Shown in pieces: positions 15,042 through 44,784 of a stretch of DNA of 44,784 bases; positions within the stretch are counted from its first letter, which is position 1; each line of letters starts with the position of its first letter. Where the stretch lies: sequence record NC_047889.1; one strand, 5' to 3'. A program made the position numbers and the translations under genes. Under the pieces are notes generated by a model. The model made no database searches, was not told where the DNA came from, and saw only the letters and a program-made list of their open reading frames with translations. Origin of the DNA: Escherichia phage mutPK1A2.

Positions 15042-15064
15042 ATTTACTGGACACTATAGAAGAG
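15042..15064 (+). promoter_or_regulatory. Phage promoter ATTTACTGGACACTATAGAAGAG
   Basis: Exact consensus. Confidence 0.75.
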
Positions 15065-34600: not shown

Positions 34601-34912
34601 ATGGGTATGATGAGTACAACTGCTGTATTTAGTCTAGGTGGAGATTTCTTAGGTGGCCTAGGTGTTCTACCTTCCGAACTCATTCAATCACGCTATGAAG
34701 CAGGTTTCCAAAGTAAGGGTCTGATTGACCAAATACCTCTGGTTGGCGTTGGTGCAGATGCAGTAAATCTGGCTAATTCAATCAAGAGGTATGCAGAAGG
34801 TGACACAGAAGGTGTAGATGTCGCTAAGCGAGCACTTCGTCTTGTGCCACTAACTAATGTAATAGGTGTCCAAAACGCATTGCGTTATGGCTTAGATGAA
34901 CTGGAGGATTGA
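31604..34912 (+). CDS. Large internal virion (core/ejection) protein
   Basis: 1102 aa; RBS GGAGG; position and size consistent with T7 gp15/gp16-class core proteins. Confidence 0.75.
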   Translation: MEQDIKTNWAGYVQSTPEPFSIEAAPVSAPTIRQRNELQEQVLEAKADADILGAVGAAFQNEWLAFGGKRWYDRATADFTPQPDFEIQPEQREALRFKYGTDMMQTITEGVRSEDELNFRIQNADEDLERNKRIAQAGWVGSVATIGAAVLDPVGWVASIPTGGAAKVGLVGRAVRGAIAAGVSNAAIESVLVQGDMTRDLDDIMVALGSGMAMGGVIGAVARGRATKLSEQGDDRAASIVRSADAGDRYVRAVADDSIGAMRVKGEEVLTEGAFDISSKGEDLLKILQREGNAIDMTPRRWAGTMSALGTVVHSSQDASVRGLGARLFESPQGLGMQKASASLMQNTNLNRLKSADMNRFNDGFDLWLKENNINPVAGHTNSHYVQQYNEKVWEAVRIGMDESTPKSIRMAAEGQQAMYREALALRQRSGEAGFEKVKADDKYMPDIFDSMKARRQFGMHDKEDIIELFSRAYQNGSRKVPKEVADEIARAQVNRVVDATLTGRMSFEKAMSGQTKAEYEAIMRKAGFSDEEIEKMVEALDNKETRDNISNRAKMSLGLDVTQEYNGIRMRDFMNTNVEELTDNYMKEAAGGAALARQGFSTYQAALNAIDLVERNARNAAKDTKAHAQFEAESAKIRQSEPDYKKAQEKIEELKKRLKLKEKDEAAGLAIDEEIRQMREGLRLIMGKSIDADPQALSTKMLRRGRDITGVLRLGQMGFAQLGELANFMGEFGIAATTIALGKQFRFTSKALRSGDGFFRDKNLAEVERMVGYIGEDNWLTTKGARPDEFGDVTTVRGMMAHFDQSMNSIRRAQTNLSLFRMAQGSLERMTNRQIALSFIDHLEGKRIIPQKKLEELGLTQEFMTNLQKHYDANSKGSGLLGFDTMPYAMGETLANAIRRKSGIIIQRNFIGDEGIWMNKALGKTFAQLKSFSLVSGEKQFGRGIRHDKIGLAKKTAYGFALGSIVYAAKAYVNSIGREDQDEYLEEKLSPKGLAFGAMGMMSTTAVFSLGGDFLGGLGVLPSELIQSRYEAGFQSKGLIDQIPLVGVGADAVNLANSIKRYAEGDTEGVDVAKRALRLVPLTNVIGVQNALRYGLDELED

Positions 34913-35874
34913 TGAGTTATACTTTCACAGAACATATAGCCAACGGTACGCAAGTTACCTATCCCTTTAGCTTTGCTGGTAGGGATAAAGGTTATCTTCG
35001 TGCCTCAGATGTGATAGTGGAATCTCTTCAAGGTAACACTTGGATTGAGGTTACATCTGGCTGGCAATTAACTGGTACGCATCAAATCACTTTTGATGTA
35101 GCACCCGTTGCAGGTTTGAAGTTCCGTATTCGAAGGGAAGTACAAAAGGAATATCCATACGCTGAGTTTGACCGTGGTGTTACCTTGGATATGAAGTCTT
35201 TAAATGGTTCTTTCATTCATATACTGGAGATTACACAGGAGTTACTTGATGGGTTTTATCCAGAAGGATACTTCATTAAGCAGAATGTAAGCTGGGGCGG
35301 CAATAAGATTACTGACCTAGCTGATGGTGAGAATCCAAAAGATGCAGTAAATAAATCACAGCTAGATGCTATCGACAAGAAGCATACTGATTGGAACTCT
35401 GCACAAGACATAGAGATTGCTGGTATTAAGAGAGGGATGGTGTCTGGTGTATCGCATCGCACTATCCCTTGGTATATGGTCGCCTCCGGTGGAGAGCAAA
35501 TCATTCGACCACCTTACTCATTTGATGATGCTATGGTGTTTATAAACGGTGTATTCCAGCATGAACTAGCAGGTGCAGTATCAGTGGGGTATGATGTTAT
35601 AACCCTGTCCGAGCCATTACAGGCTGGGGATGAAGTTTATGTGCTTATCGGTAGTCGCTTAACCCCACCTACAAGTGCGGATACTATCCTCTTTACACAA
35701 GCAGTGAGTGAAGGTACACAATCTATCGACATTGTAACGGCTTTCCAACGTCTTGATGTATATTTAGATGGCCTGTATCAACCTAATAATGCTTATGAAA
35801 TCGTAGGGTCTACTATCACTTTCAGTGAGCCATTACCTGAGTGTGTCGTAAGTATGAAGTTACAACTAGTGTAA
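34912..35874 (+). CDS. Tail fiber-like adaptor protein (T7 gp17 N-terminal domain homolog)
   Basis: 320 aa from ATG 34912; N-terminal pattern resembles the T7 gp17 tail-attachment domain; short length fits an adaptor that carries separate tailspikes. Confidence 0.65.
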   Translation: MSYTFTEHIANGTQVTYPFSFAGRDKGYLRASDVIVESLQGNTWIEVTSGWQLTGTHQITFDVAPVAGLKFRIRREVQKEYPYAEFDRGVTLDMKSLNGSFIHILEITQELLDGFYPEGYFIKQNVSWGGNKITDLADGENPKDAVNKSQLDAIDKKHTDWNSAQDIEIAGIKRGMVSGVSHRTIPWYMVASGGEQIIRPPYSFDDAMVFINGVFQHELAGAVSVGYDVITLSEPLQAGDEVYVLIGSRLTPPTSADTILFTQAVSEGTQSIDIVTAFQRLDVYLDGLYQPNNAYEIVGSTITFSEPLPECVVSMKLQLV

Positions 35875-36697: not shown

Positions 36698-36795
36698 AAG
36701 AACTAAGAGCTGTAGGAATGACCTATAAGCAGATAGCACAGAGCTTAAATGTAAGTGTGGCTACCGTGTTTAAACATTGTAAGGCAGGTGATTGA
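36694..36795 (+). CDS. Small helix-turn-helix ORF (33 aa), possibly the detached DNA-binding tail of the HNH endonuclease
   Basis: MKELRAVGMTYKQIAQSLNVSVATVFKHCK reads as an HTH; its ATG overlaps the HNH stop (ATGA) in the -1 frame and its stop overlaps the large terminase start. Confidence 0.4.
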   Translation: MKELRAVGMTYKQIAQSLNVSVATVFKHCKAGD

Positions 36796-38693
36796 TGGCT
36801 AAGGCAAGAGAATCACAAGCAGAGGCTCTTGCCAGATGGGAGATGCTACAGGAATTACAGCAGACCTTTCCTTACACAGCGGAAGGTTTGCTTCTCTTTG
36901 CAGATACAGTTATTCATAACTTGATTGCAGGCAAACCTCATCTGATTCGTATGCAGGCCGATATTTTAAAGTTTCTATTCTATGGACATAAATATCGCCT
37001 CATCGAAGCGCCCCGTGGCATCGCTAAAACTACACTATCAGCAATCTATACTGTTTTCCGTATCATCCATGAACCCCATAAGCGTATCATGGTAGTGTCC
37101 CAAAACGCCAAGCGAGCAGAGGAAATTGCAGGTTGGGTAGTGAAAATCTTCCGTGGCCTAGACTTCCTTGAGTTTATGCTACCGGACATATACGCTGGCG
37201 ACCGTGCATCAGTCAAAGCATTTGAGATTCACTACACGTTACGCGGCAGCGATAAGTCACCTTCTGTATCCTGTTACTCTATCGAAGCAGGTATGCAGGG
37301 TGCTCGTGCTGATATTATTCTAGCAGATGACGTAGAATCGATGCAGAATGCTCGTACAGCAGCAGGCCGCGCCTTGCTTGAGGAGTTGACCAAGGAGTTT
37401 GAATCTATTAACCAATTTGGTGACATCATCTACCTTGGGACGCCTCAGAACGTAAACTCTATCTACAATAACTTACCTGCTCGTGGTTACTCGGTTCGTA
37501 TCTGGACCGCACGTTATCCTTCAGTAGAGCAAGAGCAATGTTATGGTGACTTCCTTGCACCTATGATTGTGCAGGATATGAAAGACAACCCAGCACTTCG
37601 CTCTGGTTATGGGTTAGACGGTAACAGTGGTGCACCTTGCGCACCTGAAATGTACGATGATGAAGTGCTGATTGAGAAGGAAATCTCTCAGGGTGCGGCT
37701 AAGTTCCAGCTTCAGTTTATGCTTAATACTCGCATGATGGATGCTGACCGCTATCCGCTACGCCTGAATAACCTCATCTTCACTTCATTCGGTACAGAGG
37801 AAGTCCCTGTGATGCCTACATGGAGCAACGACTCTATTAACATCATTGGCGATGCACCGAAGTATGGCAATAAGCATACAGACTTTATGTATCGCCCTGT
37901 GGCCCGACCTTATGAGTGGGGTGCTGTTACCCGCAAGATTATGTATATTGACCCCGCAGGTGGCGGTAAGAACGGGGATGAAACTGGTGTGGCTATCGTC
38001 TTCCTGCACGGCACATTCATTTATGTGTATCAGTGCTTTGGTGTGCCGGGAGGATACCGCGAATCGTCCCTGAATCGCATTGTGCAGGCCGCAAAGCAGG
38101 CAGGTGTTAAAGAGGTATTCATTGAAAAGAACTTTGGTCATGGCGCGTTTGAGGCCGTTATAAAGCCATACTTTGAACGAGAGTGGCCTGTGACTCTGGA
38201 GGAAGATTACGCCACCGGACAGAAAGAGTTGCGTATCATTGAAACACTAGAGCCACTAATGGCGGCCCACAGGCTCATCTTCAACGCAGAGATGGTCAAG
38301 TCTGATTTTGAGTCGGTACAGCACTATCCGCTTGAACTACGCATGTCATACAGCCTTTTCAATCAAATGTCGAACATCACGATTGAGAAGAACAGCCTAC
38401 GACACGATGACCGCTTAGACGCTCTGTATGGCGCTATACGGCAATTAACTTCTCAGATAGACTATGACGAGGTTACACGGATTAATCGCCTCAGAGCGCA
38501 GGAGATGCGCGATTACATCCATGCTATGAACACACCTCACCTCCGTAGGGCAATGCTCTATGGAGATTATGGCACTGAGCGAAGAGTAACCAACACTTCC
38601 GTGGCTATGCAGCAAAGAGTATACGGTCAGAATTACAGGAGTAAATCGGCAAGCAGAAATACACTTTCTGCAAGGATTTCAAGGACTTATTAA
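36795..38693 (+). CDS. Terminase large subunit
   Basis: 633 aa; Walker A-like APRGIAKTT; size and position typical of T7 gp19. Confidence 0.85.
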   Translation: MAKARESQAEALARWEMLQELQQTFPYTAEGLLLFADTVIHNLIAGKPHLIRMQADILKFLFYGHKYRLIEAPRGIAKTTLSAIYTVFRIIHEPHKRIMVVSQNAKRAEEIAGWVVKIFRGLDFLEFMLPDIYAGDRASVKAFEIHYTLRGSDKSPSVSCYSIEAGMQGARADIILADDVESMQNARTAAGRALLEELTKEFESINQFGDIIYLGTPQNVNSIYNNLPARGYSVRIWTARYPSVEQEQCYGDFLAPMIVQDMKDNPALRSGYGLDGNSGAPCAPEMYDDEVLIEKEISQGAAKFQLQFMLNTRMMDADRYPLRLNNLIFTSFGTEEVPVMPTWSNDSINIIGDAPKYGNKHTDFMYRPVARPYEWGAVTRKIMYIDPAGGGKNGDETGVAIVFLHGTFIYVYQCFGVPGGYRESSLNRIVQAAKQAGVKEVFIEKNFGHGAFEAVIKPYFEREWPVTLEEDYATGQKELRIIETLEPLMAAHRLIFNAEMVKSDFESVQHYPLELRMSYSLFNQMSNITIEKNSLRHDDRLDALYGAIRQLTSQIDYDEVTRINRLRAQEMRDYIHAMNTPHLRRAMLYGDYGTERRVTNTSVAMQQRVYGQNYRSKSASRNTLSARISRTY

Positions 38694-38845: not shown

Positions 38846-39127
38846 ATGATGGCTAATGAGTACAGCAATCAGCCTTTAACAGGCCGATATGACAGAAAAC
38901 AAGTACAACCAGTTAGTGAACACTTAATGGTCCCAAGTGTTAACACTAATATTGATCTATACAACCCAGCAAAACAGGCTAGTGTTATTAATGATACCAC
39001 AAAGTCCGGTAAGCAACTCGGAGCTATGCTTGTAACAGAAATGGGTGTCCTGATGCTAGCCCGTGGAGGTGAACCCACAAGCAAGTGGGACCAGACAAAG
39101 ACATCAGAGATTATTGTTCCAGCCTAA
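38846..39127 (+). CDS. Paralog family member 1 (93 aa), unknown function
   Basis: RBS AGGAG; shares the motif SGKQ-x-GAM-V...L..AR...P.S.WD with the next ORF. Confidence 0.6.
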   Translation: MMANEYSNQPLTGRYDRKQVQPVSEHLMVPSVNTNIDLYNPAKQASVINDTTKSGKQLGAMLVTEMGVLMLARGGEPTSKWDQTKTSEIIVPA

Positions 39128-39143: not shown

Positions 39144-39431
39144 ATGCCTAAGTATGGAGATGCAAACACTGTAACAGGTCAGTCCTTCCGTGTTAAAGAT
39201 GTTCAAACTATTGCAACTGCACTGCCATTGCCTGTGGTAGCAGAGGCAGACCTTAAATCTAAAGCACACCCAATTAACATCCACCATCTTTCGGGTAAAC
39301 AAAAAGGAGCCATGGTTGCGGTACAGAAAGCAGAGGGATCGCTATATATCGCTGTAGCACGAGATGCACTACCTGAATCTCCGTGGGATGCCACTACAAT
39401 GGAAGGTACCGCTGTTACGCCAGCGGGGTAA
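39144..39431 (+). CDS. Paralog family member 2 (95 aa), unknown function
   Basis: ATG 39144 with RBS AGGAG; contains HLSGKQKGAMVAVQKAEGSLYIAVARDALPESPWD. Confidence 0.6.
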   Translation: MPKYGDANTVTGQSFRVKDVQTIATALPLPVVAEADLKSKAHPINIHHLSGKQKGAMVAVQKAEGSLYIAVARDALPESPWDATTMEGTAVTPAG

Positions 39432-39438
39432 TATTATC

Positions 39439-40116
39439 ATGTTAGGTATTACAGGACAACGAAGTTTAAGTCATCAATCAAAGGTTGCCACGGAAGTGGC
39501 TCCTATTGTTGATATCTCAGAGGTGTCTGACGTTAACTCTTATCTAAACCAAAAGCACCTATCAGGTAAACAGGAAGACTATACTGTTCTGGCTAAGAAA
39601 GGTTCACGTTATTCATTGTATGCTGCAACAGGTTCTAAGCCAGAAGATAAGTGGTTGCCTTTAGAGCAAGCAACCCTACCTGATTCGAGTGCGTTAGATC
39701 TAATTGACACCATCGATGTTGAAGTTGCAAGTGCAAGCGACACAGTAGAGGTTAATGTAACCAAAGAGGGGACTGTGTGCATCCAGACGCCTATGAAGGG
39801 CTTAGCAGGTGATACAGTTTACCGGCAAGAATTGACTGCCAATATTAACCTTACCATTAATGAAAACGGAAGCCAAAGCGATACGGTTAAATTAAACATA
39901 TCAATTCCTAATTTGCCAGGAACATCTAGTGGTTCTTACTATACAGTTGACAATGTGCTGTGTACTTCTTTTGGAGACGACAGTCCTGTTATTGCCAATA
40001 TAGATGTCGATAAGGCTACCACTAACTTGATTGCTGTTACACTTCGTAAAGAGACGGCAACAGACATTAAGCTGTCTCTTGTAATTAGGTGGTCAATGCC
40101 AGTGGAGGTTGTATAA
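39439..40116 (+). CDS. Paralog family member 3 (225 aa; paralogous N-domain plus C-terminal extension)
   Basis: ATG 39439 (track start 39364 overlaps the upstream gene); N-terminal region has the same TGQ...HLSGKQ...WLP architecture. Confidence 0.55.
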   Translation: MLGITGQRSLSHQSKVATEVAPIVDISEVSDVNSYLNQKHLSGKQEDYTVLAKKGSRYSLYAATGSKPEDKWLPLEQATLPDSSALDLIDTIDVEVASASDTVEVNVTKEGTVCIQTPMKGLAGDTVYRQELTANINLTINENGSQSDTVKLNISIPNLPGTSSGSYYTVDNVLCTSFGDDSPVIANIDVDKATTNLIAVTLRKETATDIKLSLVIRWSMPVEVV

Positions 40117-40585: not shown

Positions 40586-40718
40586 GTCTAAGAAAGTGGT
40601 AGGTGCACTGGTTGCACTGGTGATTGCTCTTGTTTCTGTAGGTCTTGGCGTAGACCTAGGTGAAGGTACGGAAGGCTCCGTCACCGACGTGGTATGCCAA
40701 GTAATCACCTGTGAATAA
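40569..40718 (+). CDS. Small membrane protein (49 aa, one TM helix), lysis-associated candidate
   Basis: Strong RBS AAAAGGAG; MKKLFKSKK then hydrophobic VVGALVALVIALVSVGLGV then acidic tail; lies in the lysis cassette. Confidence 0.4.
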   Translation: MKKLFKSKKVVGALVALVIALVSVGLGVDLGEGTEGSVTDVVCQVITCE

Positions 40719-40932
40719 GGTGCTAGAGGTGGTAGTAGGTCTTATTGGCCTGCTGCTTGCCGCTAAGAAGAAGAAGGAAGAGAAGGAGGCACAAAGTGAG
40801 GCGAATCATGCTAGCGACAATCCTGCTGATTGGTTCGCTGATCACTTCAGGGTGTCAGACGGCGTTACCAGAGAATCCAAAGGTGAAGCCTCTGAAGCCG
40901 ACGCTTACGGCAGTCTACGAGGTGGACGATAA
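40711..40932 (+). CDS. Small TM protein ORF, i-spanin-like candidate (start uncertain, GTG 40711/40729)
   Basis: Hydrophobic N-terminus VVGLIGLLLAA then a charged region; a lipoprotein ORF is embedded in another frame, as in Rz/Rz1 pairs; short for an i-spanin. Confidence 0.3.
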   Translation: MNKVLEVVVGLIGLLLAAKKKKEEKEAQSEANHASDNPADWFADHFRVSDGVTRESKGEASEADAYGSLRGGR

Positions 40933-41005
40933 AGTCTGTTTCAGTAAGCCTGACGCTACAAAATTAGGTCTGTATATTCTCTCGCTAGAACGCGGGTATA
41001 ATTAA
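40808..41005 (+). CDS. Putative o-spanin-like outer-membrane lipoprotein (Rz1-like)
   Basis: ATG 40808 with GAGG upstream; MLATILLIGSLITSGC has a lipobox-like TSGC; Pro-rich mature region; overlaps the previous ORF out of frame. Confidence 0.4.
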   Translation: MLATILLIGSLITSGCQTALPENPKVKPLKPTLTAVYEVDDKVCFSKPDATKLGLYILSLERGYN

Positions 41006-41034
41006 TACATAATTTTATGTATCAGTGTCTTACG

Positions 41035-41057
41035 ATTTACTGGACACTATAGAAGAG
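41035..41057 (+). promoter_or_regulatory. Phage promoter ATTTACTGGACACTATAGAAGAG (tailspike promoter)
   Basis: Exact consensus upstream of the tailspike region. Confidence 0.75.
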
Positions 41058-41135
41058 ATAAGATAGGCCGTTCTTTTGAGCGGCCTATTACTAGCCAATC
41101 TTCATAGGGAGGGTTGGGACGTAATAGGAGAGTAT

Positions 41136-41276
41136 ATGGCTAAGTTAACTAAACCCAAGACAACGGGCTTACTACATAGAGATACTGTACTAGCTACCTT
41201 ATTAGATAATTTACTATCTAAAAGGCGTGTTACATTTGAAGGTGTAGTTCCAAGTGAAGATACTAAATTGAGATAG
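41136..41276 (+). pseudogene. Short ORF (46 aa), possible N-terminal remnant of a lost second tailspike gene
   Basis: Good RBS (AGGAGAG) right after a strong promoter but only 46 codons (MAKLTKPKTTGLLHRDTV...), followed by about 260 bp of non-coding DNA; in related two-tailspike phages a full tailspike gene sits here. Confidence 0.4.
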
Positions 41277-41537
41277 AAGTACCTGCAACAGGAGATTTAG
41301 ATTCTTCGTGGGCATCACTTGTATCATTAAGTACACCTACACTTTGTACAGCTTGGATTACTAAAGTGTCAGATACTAGATTAGAAGTACATGTGTTCCA
41401 TACAGCACAAGTTGAAATAGACATAGATGTAGATGTTTACATTCTAGGTAAACACATTGTCAGTGCGTAAGCACTGCTTTTCGCGCAACTTTTCTTAAAG
41501 GTTATCATGATGGTAGCCTTTCAGAAAAGGAGGTTAC

Positions 41538-43973
41538 ATGATTCAAAGACTAAGTTCTTCATTAGTTAAATTCAAGAGTAAAATAGCAGGTGCAATCTGG
41601 CGTAACTTGGATGACAAGCTCACCGAGGTTGTATCGCTTAAAGATTTTGGAGCCAAAGGTGATGGTAAGACAAACGACCAAGATGCAGTAAATGCAGCGA
41701 TGGCTTCAGGTAAGAGAATTGACGGTGCTGGTGCTACTTACAAAGTATCATCTTTACCTGATATGGAGCGATTCTATAACACCCGCTTCGTATGGGAACG
41801 TTTATCAGGTCAACCTCTTTACTATGTGAGTAAAGGTTTTATCAATGGTGAACTCTATAAAATCACGGATAACCCTTATTACAATGCTTGGCCTCAAGAC
41901 AAAGCGTTTGTATATGAGAACGTGATATATGCACCTTACATGGGTAGCGACCGTCATGGTGTTAGTCGTCTGCATGTATCATGGGTTAAGTCTGGTGACG
42001 ATGGTCAAACATGGTCTACACCAGAGTGGTTAACTGATCTGCATCCAGATTACCCTACAGTGAACTATCATTGTATGAGCATGGGTGTATGTCGCAACCG
42101 TCTGTTTGCCATGATTGAAACACGTACTTTAGCCAAGAACGCACTAACCAATTGTGCATTGTGGGATCGCCCTATGTCTCGTAGTCTGCATCTTACGGGT
42201 GGTATCACTAAGGCTGCAAATCAGCGATATGCAACAATACATGTACCAGATCACGGACTATTCGTGGGCGATTTTGTTAACTTCTCTAATTCTGCGGTAA
42301 CAGGTGTATCAGGTGATATGACTGTTGCAACGGTAATAGATAAGGACAACTTCACGGTTCTTACACCTAACCAGCAGACTTCAGATTTGAATAACGCTGG
42401 AAAGAATTGGCACATGGGTACTTCTTTCCATAAGTCTCCGTGGCGTAAGACAGATCTTGGTCTAATCCCTCATGTCACAGAGGTGCATAGCTTTGCTACT
42501 ATTGATAACAATGGCTTTGTTATGGGCTATCATCAAGGTGATGTAGCTCCACGAGAAGTTGGGCTTTTCTACTTCCCTGATGCTTTCAATAGCCCATCTA
42601 ATTATGTTCGTCGTCAGATACCATCTGAGTATGAACCAGATGCGGCAGAGCCATGCATCAAGTACTATGACGGTGTATTATACCTTATCACTCGTGGTAC
42701 TCGTGGCGACCGACTAGGAAGCTCTCTGCATCGTAGTAGAGATATAGGTCAGACTTGGGAGTCACTAAGATTTCCACATAATGTGTATCATACTACTTTA
42801 CCGTTTGCTAAGGTAGGAGATGACCTTATTATGTTTGGTTCAGAACGTGCAGAAAATGAATGGGAAGCAGGTGCACCAGATGATCGTTACAAGGCATCTT
42901 ATCCTCGTACCTTCTATGCACGATTGAATGTAAACAATTGGAATGCAGCTGATATTGAATGGGTTAACATCACAGACCAAATCTATCAGGGTGACATTGT
43001 GGACTCTAGTGTAGGTGTAGGTTCGGTAGTAGTTAAAGACAGCTACATTTACTATATCTTTGGTGGCGAAAACCATTTCAACCCAATGACTTATGGTGAC
43101 AACAGAGATAAAGACCCATTTAAAGGTCATGGACACCCTACTGATATATACTGCTATAAGATGCAGATTGCAAATGACAGTCGTGTATCTCGTAAGTTTA
43201 CATATGGTGCAACTCCCGGACAGGCTATACCTACCTTCATGGGTACTGATGGTATTCGTACTATTCCTGCTCCACTTCACTTATCAGGAGAGGTAGTTGC
43301 CGCAGATATGACTGTCGAACATCTTACCCTGAAGGCAAGTACAAGTGCTAATATTCGCTCAGAGATGCTGATGGAAGGTGAATATGGGTTCATTGGTAAG
43401 ACTATACCAAAGGATAACCCAACTGCCCAACGTGTCATCATCTCTGGTGGAGGGGGTACAGCAGCAGATACCGGTGCGCAAATTACCTTACATGGAGCAG
43501 GTTCTAGTACTTCTAGACGCGCAGTATATAATGCCAATGAGCACTTGTTCCAAAGCGGGGCTATCATGCCCTACAATGATAACGTGTATCCTGCTGGCGG
43601 CCCTCGTAATAGATTCACTACTATCCATCTTACAAGTGACCCTATTATTACGTCTGATGCCACTCATAAGTATGGATCACAAGGTATTGATGAGAGTGTA
43701 CTAAAGGCATGGGGTAAGGTTAGCTTCAAGCAGTACAAGTTGATTGGTGAGATGTCTCGTGGTGTGCACCACACTCACTTTGGTGTATTGGCACAAGACA
43801 TTGTAGCTGCTTTTGCATCCGAAGGGTTAGATGCAATCGACTTCGGCATTGTCTCCTTCGAAGAAGGTCAGTTTGGTGTTAGATATAGTGAAATCTTAAT
43901 CTTGGAGGCTGCTTATACTCGTTATCGTTTAGATAAGTTAGAGGAGATGTATGCCACTAATAAAATCAGTTAA
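41538..43973 (+). CDS. Tailspike endosialidase (endo-N-acetylneuraminidase) with C-terminal chaperone-like end
   Basis: 811 aa; sialidase Asp-boxes SGDDGQTW and SRDIGQTW; overall sequence recognised as K1-phage endosialidase; RBS AAAAGGAGGT. Confidence 0.9.
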   Translation: MIQRLSSSLVKFKSKIAGAIWRNLDDKLTEVVSLKDFGAKGDGKTNDQDAVNAAMASGKRIDGAGATYKVSSLPDMERFYNTRFVWERLSGQPLYYVSKGFINGELYKITDNPYYNAWPQDKAFVYENVIYAPYMGSDRHGVSRLHVSWVKSGDDGQTWSTPEWLTDLHPDYPTVNYHCMSMGVCRNRLFAMIETRTLAKNALTNCALWDRPMSRSLHLTGGITKAANQRYATIHVPDHGLFVGDFVNFSNSAVTGVSGDMTVATVIDKDNFTVLTPNQQTSDLNNAGKNWHMGTSFHKSPWRKTDLGLIPHVTEVHSFATIDNNGFVMGYHQGDVAPREVGLFYFPDAFNSPSNYVRRQIPSEYEPDAAEPCIKYYDGVLYLITRGTRGDRLGSSLHRSRDIGQTWESLRFPHNVYHTTLPFAKVGDDLIMFGSERAENEWEAGAPDDRYKASYPRTFYARLNVNNWNAADIEWVNITDQIYQGDIVDSSVGVGSVVVKDSYIYYIFGGENHFNPMTYGDNRDKDPFKGHGHPTDIYCYKMQIANDSRVSRKFTYGATPGQAIPTFMGTDGIRTIPAPLHLSGEVVAADMTVEHLTLKASTSANIRSEMLMEGEYGFIGKTIPKDNPTAQRVIISGGGGTAADTGAQITLHGAGSSTSRRAVYNANEHLFQSGAIMPYNDNVYPAGGPRNRFTTIHLTSDPIITSDATHKYGSQGIDESVLKAWGKVSFKQYKLIGEMSRGVHHTHFGVLAQDIVAAFASEGLDAIDFGIVSFEEGQFGVRYSEILILEAAYTRYRLDKLEEMYATNKIS

Positions 43974-44106
43974 GCAAGCTGCTGTACTCCAGAATACAGA
44001 AGAACTTATTCAATCAGGACGTGACCCTAAGCAGGCATACGCCATTGCCAAGGATGTACAACGTAGAGCATTGAGTAAGCCCTCTGCATCGTCTGCGAAG
44101 CAGTAA
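43951..44106 (+). CDS. Hypothetical small protein (51 aa)
   Basis: ATG with GAGGAG upstream, overlapping the tailspike 3' end. Confidence 0.3.
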   Translation: MPLIKSVKQAAVLQNTEELIQSGRDPKQAYAIAKDVQRRALSKPSASSAKQ

Positions 44107-44166
44107 CACTTAGTCTACACAAGGGCTGGTTTAGGTTGGCCCTTAGTGCAACCCAAAGGAGGTTTG

Positions 44167-44322
44167 ATGATTTGGATTCATACTTATGGAGTCGGCCCAT
44201 TCAAACGTAAGGTACTCAGGAAGATACATGACACTGAAGAGTCTGCACTGGCTAGCCAGAAGGTTCTTGGTGGAACTGTACAGGCTTACCTGAAGCAACC
44301 CAAGGGATTCTACTTAGTGTAA
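44167..44322 (+). CDS. Hypothetical small protein (51 aa)
   Basis: Strong RBS AAAGGAGGT before ATG. Confidence 0.4.
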   Translation: MIWIHTYGVGPFKRKVLRKIHDTEESALASQKVLGGTVQAYLKQPKGFYLV

Positions 44323-44337
44323 TCAAATGGAGATAAC

Positions 44338-44433
44338 ATGTTAGTAGGCTTAATTAGTTTTATCTTAGGTGTATGCGTAGGTTTCTGTATTATGCCTGTA
44401 GCAATAGCTTGTGCACTTAAGGCTGAGGTATAG
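44338..44433 (+). CDS. Small hydrophobic peptide (31 aa)
   Basis: RBS GGAG; MLVGLISFILGVCVGFCIMPVAIACALKAEV is a single TM segment; short, tentative. Confidence 0.25.
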   Translation: MLVGLISFILGVCVGFCIMPVAIACALKAEV

Positions 44434-44497: not shown

Positions 44498-44784
44498 TCT
44501 CGCCCTCGCCCTCGCCGGACTTTCCCCATATGGGGTCGCGCTGCGGTTGGCTTGGGAATTGGGCTAGGCTGGGCCGTCTTCAACCTGCTGCCGCAGGAAG
44601 CTCGACGGGCTGGCTGAGGTTTGCCTTGTACTCGCTTAGTGGTACACAAGGAGAACGCCTAGGAAGCGCTAGGGCACGCCTTAGTATTGGACAAGGTGAT
44701 TGCCTTAGTGCATCCGCTTAGGGCTTACACGGGCCGTTTTAGGGCCATTCCTGAGCGTTTGACAGGGTGTGTTGGTGTGGGCTA
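44498..44784. repeat. Right direct terminal repeat (DTR)
   Basis: Same sequence as 1..287; T7-like genomes carry terminal redundancy used in concatemer formation and packaging. Confidence 0.9.

Follow-up and report, generated by a model that had tools for sequence, protein, structure and literature searches.

The region 41035–43973 of the Escherichia phage mutPK1A2 genome (NC_047889.1, analysed over its whole length of 44,784 nucleotides, referred to here as the window) is very probably the two-slot tailspike module of a K1E-like Vectrevirus, in which slot 1 holds a frameshifted gp46 gene and slot 2 the PK1A2 allele of the endosialidase. In the initial annotation, slot 1 was described as a 46-codon ORF followed by about 260 bp without an ORF (41277–41537) and was interpreted as the deletion remnant of a full tailspike gene. 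This stretch instead encodes gp46 residues 45–111 one frame over, and only 67 nt are intergenic; the apparent ORF gap is caused by a single-base deletion (A4 to A3) relative to the other K1E-like records, and the apparent decay amounts to one recent 1-nt indel and not to a deletion scar. The short ORF belongs, as its 5′ part, to an independent gene that is conserved, its 111 codons being intact in all 23 of the other complete or near-complete K1E-like records (81–100% identity).

PK1A2 is reportedly a host-range mutant of PK1A, the names and years associated with this account being Pelkonen, 1992, Jakobsson, 2007, and Lehti, 2017. The modular tailspike locus of K1E, K1-5, K5 and SP6, its docking peptides and the 'truncated' K1E gp46 are already known and have served as textbook cases of how host range evolves since 2001–2007; the only new detail is the gp46 frameshift, whether it is real or due to a miscalled homopolymer. 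The window is the complete PK1A2 genome, published under MG004687 as that of a laboratory mutant; it is K1E-like (PMC5715158) and has 286-bp terminal repeats.

Organization of the tailspike module

The region shares its organization with SP6-like (Vectrevirus/Zindervirus) tailspike modules, and all of the features described here lie on the plus strand. A gp37-type adapter (T7 gp17-like N-terminus, ~320 aa, without a receptor-binding domain) is encoded by gene 37 at 34912–35871, outside 41035–43973 yet a functional part of the module; its 320-aa product matches residues 1–320 of vB_EcoP_B B_47 at 99.4% identity in a single frame. The slot-1 protein starts with MAKLTKP, the slot-2 protein starts with MIQRLSSSLVK, which agrees with MIQRLGSSLVK at ten of 11 positions (G6S is also found in PK1A), a phage promoter and a conserved leader precede slot 1, and a conserved inter-slot block of ~77 nt contains two symmetrical elements. 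Passages of PMC6872550 and PMC6966330 that cite Leiman 2007 describe the gp37 adapter as the docking platform for gp46 and gp47, and the conserved slot-1 heptapeptide MAKLTKP is defined in a part of PMC6872550 that cites the same work. The slot-1 and slot-2 products would dock non-covalently on gp37 through their short N-termini, the slot-1 peptide being MAKLTKP and the slot-2 peptide MIQRL(G/S)SSLVK.

The phage promoter proposed initially at 41035 is well supported. The SP6/K1E-type phage RNA polymerase promoter ATTTACTGGACACTATAGAAGAG occupies 41035–41057, agrees with the promoter annotation in X78310 and Y10025 and is conserved in K1-5, K5 and SP6; the window contains nine matches of this type, where chance would give 0.01, and exact copies lie at 15046 and 41039. 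The SP6 promoter, taken as a model, places the probable transcription start at G 41052, and this single late promoter would yield a transcript with a stable 5′ hairpin and the two tailspike-module genes. The hairpin is a 12-bp stem-loop in the 5′ transcript leader, AUAGGCCGUUCUUUUGAGCGGCCUAU (41062–41089; ΔG = −20.7 kcal/mol, z = −5.8, none of 200 shuffles as stable), the sequence of which is common to K1-5, K5 and SP6 and which may stabilise the mRNA at its 5′ end or act in its processing. A scan of 40900–44400 for sigma-70 promoters and intrinsic terminators gave no enrichment over shuffles.

The true intergenic stretch covers only 41471–41537 (67 nt), is highly conserved and holds most of two hairpins. 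Hairpin 1, CAGTGCGTAAGCACTG followed by CTTTTC (41461–41482), is terminator-like and carries the gp46 stop codon TAA in its loop; it begins inside the last gp46 codons at 41461, where the conserved inter-slot block also begins. It is kept in ten phages, SP6 showing a compensatory change from T-A to C-G, and is annotated as a putative terminator in KAW1A4500; folded alone, its energy is not exceptional (z = −1.3). Hairpin 1 may act in termination or attenuation. Hairpin 2 (41489–41529) is long and imperfect (ΔG = −19.7 kcal/mol, z = −4.9, none of 200 shuffles as stable) and lies directly 5′ of the endosialidase Shine–Dalgarno sequence AAGGAGG (41527–41533), which it partially overlaps. Its stems are invariant across the K1E-like phages, K1-5, K5 and SP6, which makes a covariation test uninformative; it may serve for processing of the RNase III type or for the control of translation.

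The split gp46 gene

The 46-codon ORF is indeed well initiated, as first noted, and runs from an ATG at 41136 to a TAG at 41274–41276, with an AGGAG ribosome-binding site (41126–41130) 5 nt upstream. Its 46-aa product is exactly the recorded mutPK1A2_p59. This 5′ part of gene 46 (41136–41276) consists of authentic codons 1–44 followed by Leu-Arg-stop, matches positions 1–45 of phrog_15083 (E = 9e-25) and encodes MAKLTKP, the heptapeptide that binds the adapter, together with a predicted helix and predicted β-strands 1 and 2. The 3′ part (41267–41470) comprises codons 45–111 and the TAA (41468–41470) in the other frame, matches positions 45–111 of the same profile (E = 3e-42) and encodes five of the seven strands of the β-sandwich predicted by a structure model. 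When vB_EcoP_B gp46 is used as a tblastn query the match breaks into two frames at codon 45, residues 45–111 aligning to 41267–41467 in frame 2 with 100% identity. The break coincides with the frameshift site AAA at 41265–41267, which is one A short of the AAAA in the other K1E-like records and appears as a 1-nt deletion (A4 to A3) in the alignment with K1E. With the A restored, gp46 is 100% identical to vB_EcoP_B gp46 and 97% identical to K1E gp46; K1E gene 46 is the '12 kDa ORF' of X78310, gp46 of AM084415 and phrog_15083 (111 aa). Homology to this family thus spans the whole 111-residue profile, divided between two reading frames, and the uninterrupted 111-codon ORF of the family is replaced by one with a stop after codon 46 through the 1-nt deletion. 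Judging by its sequence, gp46 as recorded is a pseudogene or truncated allele of the phrog_15083 family: with one A lost from the A4 run in the slot-1 gene, translation would end after 46 residues and 67 codons would be left untranslated in another frame.

In addition to the 23 genome records, gp46 is intact in the ten loci examined and in two metagenomic contigs, and the sole other record with gp46 out of frame is EF507428, a partial PK1A sequence. The A4 variant of the frameshift site was found in four contigs; the A3 variant is absent from IMG/VR. The dN/dS ratio of gp46 is 0.15–0.45 (0.13–0.37 among relatives for codons 45–111 alone), which marks it as a conserved gene and not as decaying DNA, and its variable sites are distributed 20/10/37 over the three codon positions. 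The protein would be a conserved, non-enzymatic one of 111 aa in which an anchor peptide is followed by a helix and a small β-sandwich, predicted to fold compactly. In Pfam, gp46 gave a sub-threshold match to the ASH domain alone (E = 0.07), which was disregarded. In K1E, gp46 is part of the virion and is located on gp37 by cryo-EM, as stated in a passage of PMC6966330 citing Leiman 2007.

Cassette boundaries and comparison with related phages

Related phages do carry a full tailspike in slot 1, as had been proposed: a 632-aa K5 lyase in K1-5 and K5 and a 550-aa tailspike in SP6. Homology to these loci stops at 41155–41161 and restarts at 41461, leaving a K1E-type cassette body (41162–41460) with no nucleotide similarity to K1-5, K5 or SP6; in K1-5, ~1.9 kb of the K5 lyase gene takes the place of these bases. 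The shared flanks hold the promoter, 5′ hairpin, ribosome-binding site and first codons on one side and the two intergenic hairpins on the 3′ side. The slot is bounded by these conserved flanks, which are suited to cassette exchange (K1-5, K5, SP6), and it may be through the flanks (40990–41161 and 41461 onward) that tailspike cassettes are swapped by homologous exchange between K1E, K1-5, K5 and SP6.

Alignment of slot 1 to the tailspike loci gave a divided result, with matches in the flanks and the N-terminal ~24–45 residues but none in the cassette body. Residues 1–45 of gp46 match the N-terminus of the K5 lyase (2x3h), the slot-1 occupant in K1-5, with 18 of 46 residues identical, and the likeness is confined to the first ~24–45 residues, MAKLTKP included. 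Searches of the cassette body against the K1-5, K5 and SP6 loci by tblastx and blastn returned no match in 41208–41459, a tblastn search of 50,697 phage records with gp46 showed no tailspike similarity past about residue 45, and a word-indexed search of 5.8 billion proteins gave no longer gp46 homologue; tailspike-derived similarity, which a remnant might have retained in 41277–41537, was thus detected by none of tblastn, tblastx and the protein search. Beyond the docking region, gp46 has only a weak fold resemblance to the distal β-sandwich domains of tail fibres and tailspikes.

K1E is the closest model, with the promoter, leader, ribosome-binding site, gene order, intergenic block and endosialidase as in PK1A2 and 98.5% nucleotide identity over 41000–41540. 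PK1A2 differs from K1E in lacking one A at 41265–41267, with a 46-aa product instead of 111 aa, in the endosialidase substitutions H417Y and N489D, and in having Ser6 and not Gly6 in the slot-2 undecapeptide, Ser6 being shared with PK1A. K1-5 carries a K5 lyase as gp46 and an endosialidase as gp47 on gp37, and the adapter gene is also present in PK1A2. The K1-5/K5 upstream flank (promoter, 5′ hairpin, ribosome-binding site and MAKLTKP codons) is ~91% identical over 40900–41155, and the inter-slot block and endosialidase start are 98% identical from 41461, whereas the cassette bodies have no similarity and slot 1, which measures 336 nt in PK1A2, has a length of 1,899 nt in K1-5 and K5 (632 aa, a β-helix lyase). 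According to the literature, the host range covers K1 and K5 for K1-5 and K1 only for PK1A2. SP6 (SP6p49 and SP6p50, corresponding to gp46 and gp47) has the same module architecture and flanks, its upstream flank being 80% and its inter-slot block 88% identical; in SP6, however, both slots hold full LPS-specific tailspikes, and the slot-1 N-terminus reads MSLTKPR instead of MAKLTKP. The wild-type PK1A endosialidase locus (EF507428) is 99.84% identical to that of PK1A2 over 3,840 nt, with six differences: three endosialidase amino-acid changes (H417Y, N489D and R614G) and three gp46 differences clustered in 18 nt (one G/A and two single-A indels), as a result of which gp46 is out of frame in both PK1A and PK1A2, but differently.

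The slot-2 endosialidase

Gene 47 (41538–43973) encodes an 811-aa endosialidase tailspike, identified by its Pfam architecture and motifs, that is 97.8% identical to the vB_EcoP_B endosialidase. The gathering thresholds of Pfam are exceeded by five domains, End_N_terminal (residues 39–102), End_beta_propel (103–545), End_beta_barrel (214–296), End_tail_spike (546–705) and Peptidase_S74 (706–763); the five values, from strongest to weakest, are 1.4e-219, 2.3e-84, 4.6e-48, 6.4e-35 and 1.1e-08. Asp-boxes and a C-terminal chaperone-like end had been noted from the outset, and both are present, the former as SGDDGQTW (152–159) and SRDIGQTW (400–407) and the latter as an intramolecular chaperone from Ser706 (nt 43653–43970); the N-terminus is formed by the docking peptide MIQRLSSSLVK. 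The N-terminal extension, β-propeller with an inserted β-barrel, stalk and S74 chaperone agree with the GH58 endoNE/endoNA type. The β-propeller in the GH58 phage endosialidase architecture is six-bladed.

Two substitutions set this protein apart. H417Y (codon 417, 42786–42788) results from C to T at 42786 and replaces a His found in PK1A, K1E, K1-5 and nine other relatives, and N489D (codon 489, 43002–43004) results from A to G at 43002 and replaces an Asn found in all 12 relatives, so that the pair is unique to PK1A2 among 13 sequences. Two PK1A2 endosialidase substitutions, probably these, are reported to abolish catalysis with retention of polysialic acid binding (PMC5715158). Slot 2 would encode the binding-competent, cleavage-deficient allele that defines PK1A2, reported to bind polysialic acid without cleaving it. 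There are three endosialidase differences from EF507428 (H417Y, N489D and R614G) against two substitutions in the literature; the third, R614G, seems peculiar to the PK1A record, since Gly is present in all other relatives.

Discussion

We lean slightly towards the gp46 frameshift being a genuine, recent loss-of-function mutation that is tolerated in laboratory propagation. A homopolymer miscall or assembly artefact, the true PK1A2 having AAAA and an intact 111-codon gp46, has a chance somewhat short of even. The missing A is a single-base change in a homopolymer, a classic miscall site; no second mutation follows in gp46, the 67 downstream codons being 100% identical to those of an intact relative without further decay; and the record of the parental PK1A has A4 at this site, together with two other oddities within the same 18 nt. 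The intact gene in the other 23 records and the metagenomic contigs and the failure to find A3 in IMG/VR point the same way. Against an error, gp46 is the sole split gene among 52 vB_EcoP_B proteins mapped (55 annotated) onto the 44.8-kb genome, and the assembly therefore shows no tendency to indels; the chance that one isolated random error hits this 333-nt gene is ~0.7%; as a homopolymer, A4 is short; and only a dispensable gene, gp46 being the obvious candidate, would be expected to retain a real frameshift.

That slot 1 is what a deletion left of a full tailspike gene, in decay as a leftover ORF followed by drifting non-coding DNA, now appears improbable. The full tailspikes in this slot of K1-5, K5 and SP6 speak for it, as do the resemblance of the first ~24–45 residues to the K5 lyase N-terminus, the position of the gp46 stop codon inside the conserved inter-slot block and not in its own cassette, and the words 'small' or 'truncated' applied to K1E ORF46 in passages of the reviews PMC6966330 and PMC5380687 that cite Leiman 2007. 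The supposedly non-coding stretch is, however, coding in 23 of 23 other K1E-like records and under purifying selection, 41162–41460 lacks nucleotide or translated similarity to the K5 lyase and SP6 tailspikes, no longer homologue exists among the 5.8 billion proteins searched, and gp46 is a predicted compact β-sandwich reported in the K1E virion (PMC6966330, in a passage citing Leiman 2007). The gene may have arisen as a tailspike cut down to an anchor and a distal domain. Programmed recoding was also considered, in which a −1 shift of the ribosome or slippage during transcription joins the gp46 halves at the A run and full-length gp46 is still produced, as the frames overlap at the A-rich ACU AAA UUG, where a −1 shift with the last A re-read would be needed. 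We rejected it as extremely improbable: the site lacks a canonical X XXY YYZ slippery heptamer, polymerase slippage would need a run much longer than A3, no stimulatory structure was detected downstream, and all relatives encode gp46 in a single frame, so that recoding is not a family trait.

The value of these results is largely corrective, in that the apparent spacer is a frameshifted conserved gene. As the endosialidase is the PK1A2 allele, reported not to cleave, K1 capsule degradation predicted from the sequence would be wrong. If the frameshift is real, the gp46 body would be dispensable for laboratory growth, a free genetic datum. A real frameshift might also have been co-selected with the catalytically dead endosialidase during the isolation of PK1A2 on a capsule-poor K1 host, the gp46 β-sandwich normally acting in adsorption; we consider this unlikely. 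If true, gp46 would be, for example, a lectin-like or spacing element on the adapter, the loss of which contributes to the altered host range, and at the least PK1A2 would be a natural knockout in which the gp46 body is dispensable for infectivity.

Genome context

Perfect 286-bp direct repeats at both termini (1–286 and 44499–44784) identify the window as a complete linear genome; the repeats are G+C-rich (0.55–0.63, versus ~0.38–0.49 in the kilobase before). PK1A2, whose genome has been deposited as MG004687, was obtained from PK1A as a host-range mutant by selection on a K1 strain bearing little capsule; two substitutions in its endosialidase abolish catalysis while polysialic acid binding is kept (Lehti et al., 2017, PMC5715158). 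Sequence comparison of the tailspike-module region gives 98–99% identity to K1E-like Vectreviruses. The large terminase gene (36792–38693) is unbroken and encodes 632 aa with 99.2% identity to vB_EcoP_B, a K1E-like relative, whereas that of K1E is split into 40A and 40B by the putative homing endonuclease gp40.5. The HNH endonuclease B_9 of vB_EcoP_B has no counterpart in the window. A 250-codon ORF (39364–40116), flanked on one side by the gp41/gp42-like genes and on the other by the endolysin, is absent from K1E and vB_EcoP_B; KAW1A4500, UTI89UKE2 and fTuEco01 have a 225-aa hypothetical protein annotated at this locus. Its N-terminal part is 38% identical to gp42, so the locus holds three paralogous small-protein copies (38849–39125, 39144–39425 and 39448–39654).

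A frameshifted gp46 gene in the first tailspike slot

The phage promoter that the initial annotation placed at 41035 is borne out by the promoter-like sequence ATTTACTGGACACTATAGAAGAG (41035–41057, + strand), whose 19-nt core has nine + strand copies in the window (0.01 expected by chance) and thus belongs to a genuine SP6/K1E-type late promoter family. Downstream of a 12-bp leader hairpin (41062–41089; dG −20.7, z −5.8) lies the well-initiated 46-codon ORF described earlier (ATG 41136 to TAG 41274–41276, AGGAG 5 nt upstream), the product of which exactly matches the NCBI entry 'hypothetical protein mutPK1A2_p59 [Escherichia phage mutPK1A2]'. Reading of 40700–41700 and an ORF listing show no long ORF in the ~260 bp that follow, up to the start of an 811-codon ORF. 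To this extent the reported ORF-free spacer stands, but it is not devoid of coding sequence. The K1E counterpart of this slot is gene 46, a 111-codon ORF that the 1994 annotation called the '12 kDa ORF' and gave a promoter and ribosome-binding site of its own, and alignment with K1E reveals one A missing from the run ACTAAAATTG, which reads AAA in the window (41265–41267). Codons 1–44 are authentic and are followed by Leu-Arg-stop; codons 45–111 continue in the next frame at 41267–41467, ending at TAA 41468–41470. When the A is put back, the translation is identical to vB_EcoP_B gp46, and in a profile search both halves match phrog_15083 (positions 1–45, E 9e-25; positions 45–111, E 3e-42). 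Together the short ORF and 'spacer' are a frameshifted gp46 gene, the 'spacer' being its out-of-frame 3′ two-thirds, and only 67 nt (41471–41537) are truly intergenic.

The proposal that this DNA is the deletion remnant of a tailspike gene is unlikely: gp46 is a conserved, constrained 111-codon gene rather than decaying DNA. The tighter constraint on the endosialidase (dN/dS 0.05–0.21, versus 0.15–0.45) places gp46 under moderate purifying selection. It is intact in two metagenomic IMG/VR contigs, and the A3 variant of the run occurs nowhere in IMG/VR. All homologues returned from 5.8 billion proteins were 111 aa in length, so no longer protein contains the gp46 sequence. From a shallow alignment, AlphaFold2 predicts a disordered N-terminus (1–13), a helix (15–24) and a seven-stranded β-sandwich (26–104), with mean pLDDT 69 and pTM 0.59; five of the seven strands would be taken away by the codon-45 frameshift.

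As had been stated, related phages carry a full tailspike in this slot: a 632-aa K5 lyase in K1-5 and K5 and a 550-aa tailspike in SP6. Upstream nucleotide homology to these phages extends from ~40990 to 41155–41161, taking in the promoter, 5′ hairpin, ribosome-binding site and first 7–9 codons, and restarts exactly at 41461, 10 nt ahead of the gp46 stop, running into the endosialidase. Between these limits there is no match to the K1-5, K5 or SP6 loci at the nucleotide level or in any translated frame. The anticipated residual tailspike likeness is thus undetectable in the 'spacer' but present in gp46 residues 1–45, which at the protein level match the K5 lyase N-terminus (18/46 identical, pairwise E 7e-07; E 0.023 against PDB entry 2x3h). 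Reviews citing Leiman et al. (2007) (PMC6872550, PMC6966330, PMC5380687) describe MAKLTKP as the heptapeptide docking slot-1 proteins on the adapter gp37, MIQRLGSSLVK as the docking peptide of slot-2 proteins, and K1E gp46 as very small, 'truncated', non-enzymatic and gp37-attached in the virion; in the literature, K1E gp46 already counts as a truncated tail protein. The window carries an intact adapter gene (34912–35871).

The inter-slot block contains hairpin 1 (CAGTGCGTAAGCACTG at 41461–41476, then CTTTTC), with the gp46 stop codon in its loop, and hairpin 2 (41489–41529; dG −19.7, z −4.9), which adjoins the endosialidase Shine–Dalgarno sequence. Both are kept across K1E-like phages, K1-5, K5 and SP6; hairpin 1 of SP6 has one compensatory change (T-A to C-G), and hairpin 2 is invariant. 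By analogy with T7-group phages, we infer that the leader and inter-slot hairpins may act in stability, processing or termination.

Mutation or miscall

We lean towards the frameshift being a real mutation. Among the 52 vB_EcoP_B proteins (55 annotated) mapped on the window, gp46 alone is split over two frames, so the assembly is not indel-prone, and the chance of one random error falling in this gene is ~0.7%; a true frameshift would, moreover, last only in a dispensable gene. However, the missing A sits in a homopolymer, no decay is seen downstream of the site and the record of the parent PK1A (EF507428) carries A4 at the same run, and a miscall in the record has a substantial probability, somewhat below even. 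In EF507428 gp46 is also out of frame, but differently: at positions 420–439 (window 41259–41276) GATAGAAAG holds one A too many and a G is replaced by A, both of which are found in neither PK1A2 nor any relative. The two records differ at six places, three of them within 18 nt of gp46 sequence, and the two discrepancies peculiar to EF507428 look like errors of the older record.

The endosialidase

The 811-codon endosialidase ORF (41538..43973) has the full Pfam architecture, and the Asp-boxes (residues 152–159 and 400–407) and C-terminal chaperone (S74, from Ser706) noted initially are confirmed. It differs from EF507428 at three residues (H417Y, N489D and R614G), versus the two PK1A2 substitutions in the literature. 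Among 13 sequences, H417Y and N489D occur in the window alone, whereas at position 614 (window 43377; EF507428 position 2540) the outlier is the PK1A record, with Arg in place of the Gly of the window and all 11 other relatives; the peculiarity at this residue lies either in the record or in the PK1A stock itself. On this sequence comparison, the two substitutions reported to abolish cleavage are likely to be H417Y and N489D. In the slot-2 docking undecapeptide, MIQRLSSSLVK, codon 6 (41553–41555) encodes Ser; K1E, K1-5 and eight other relatives have MIQRLGSSLVK, and wild-type PK1A also carries G6S. The corresponding peptides are MLQRLGASLVK in ACG-C91 and MLQRLSTKLIQ in K5 ORF-P. At 43951–44106, a small ORF in a different frame (51 aa, 94% identity to vB_EcoP_B '48') shares the final 23 nt of the endosialidase gene, an arrangement that the annotations of K1-5, ACG-C91 and further relatives also show.

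Overall, the observation of the initial annotation is partly confirmed and its interpretation partly supported. The single-base frameshift is the only new element, all else, including the genome itself, being already known; the gp46 locus does correspond to the first tailspike slot, which is exchangeable.
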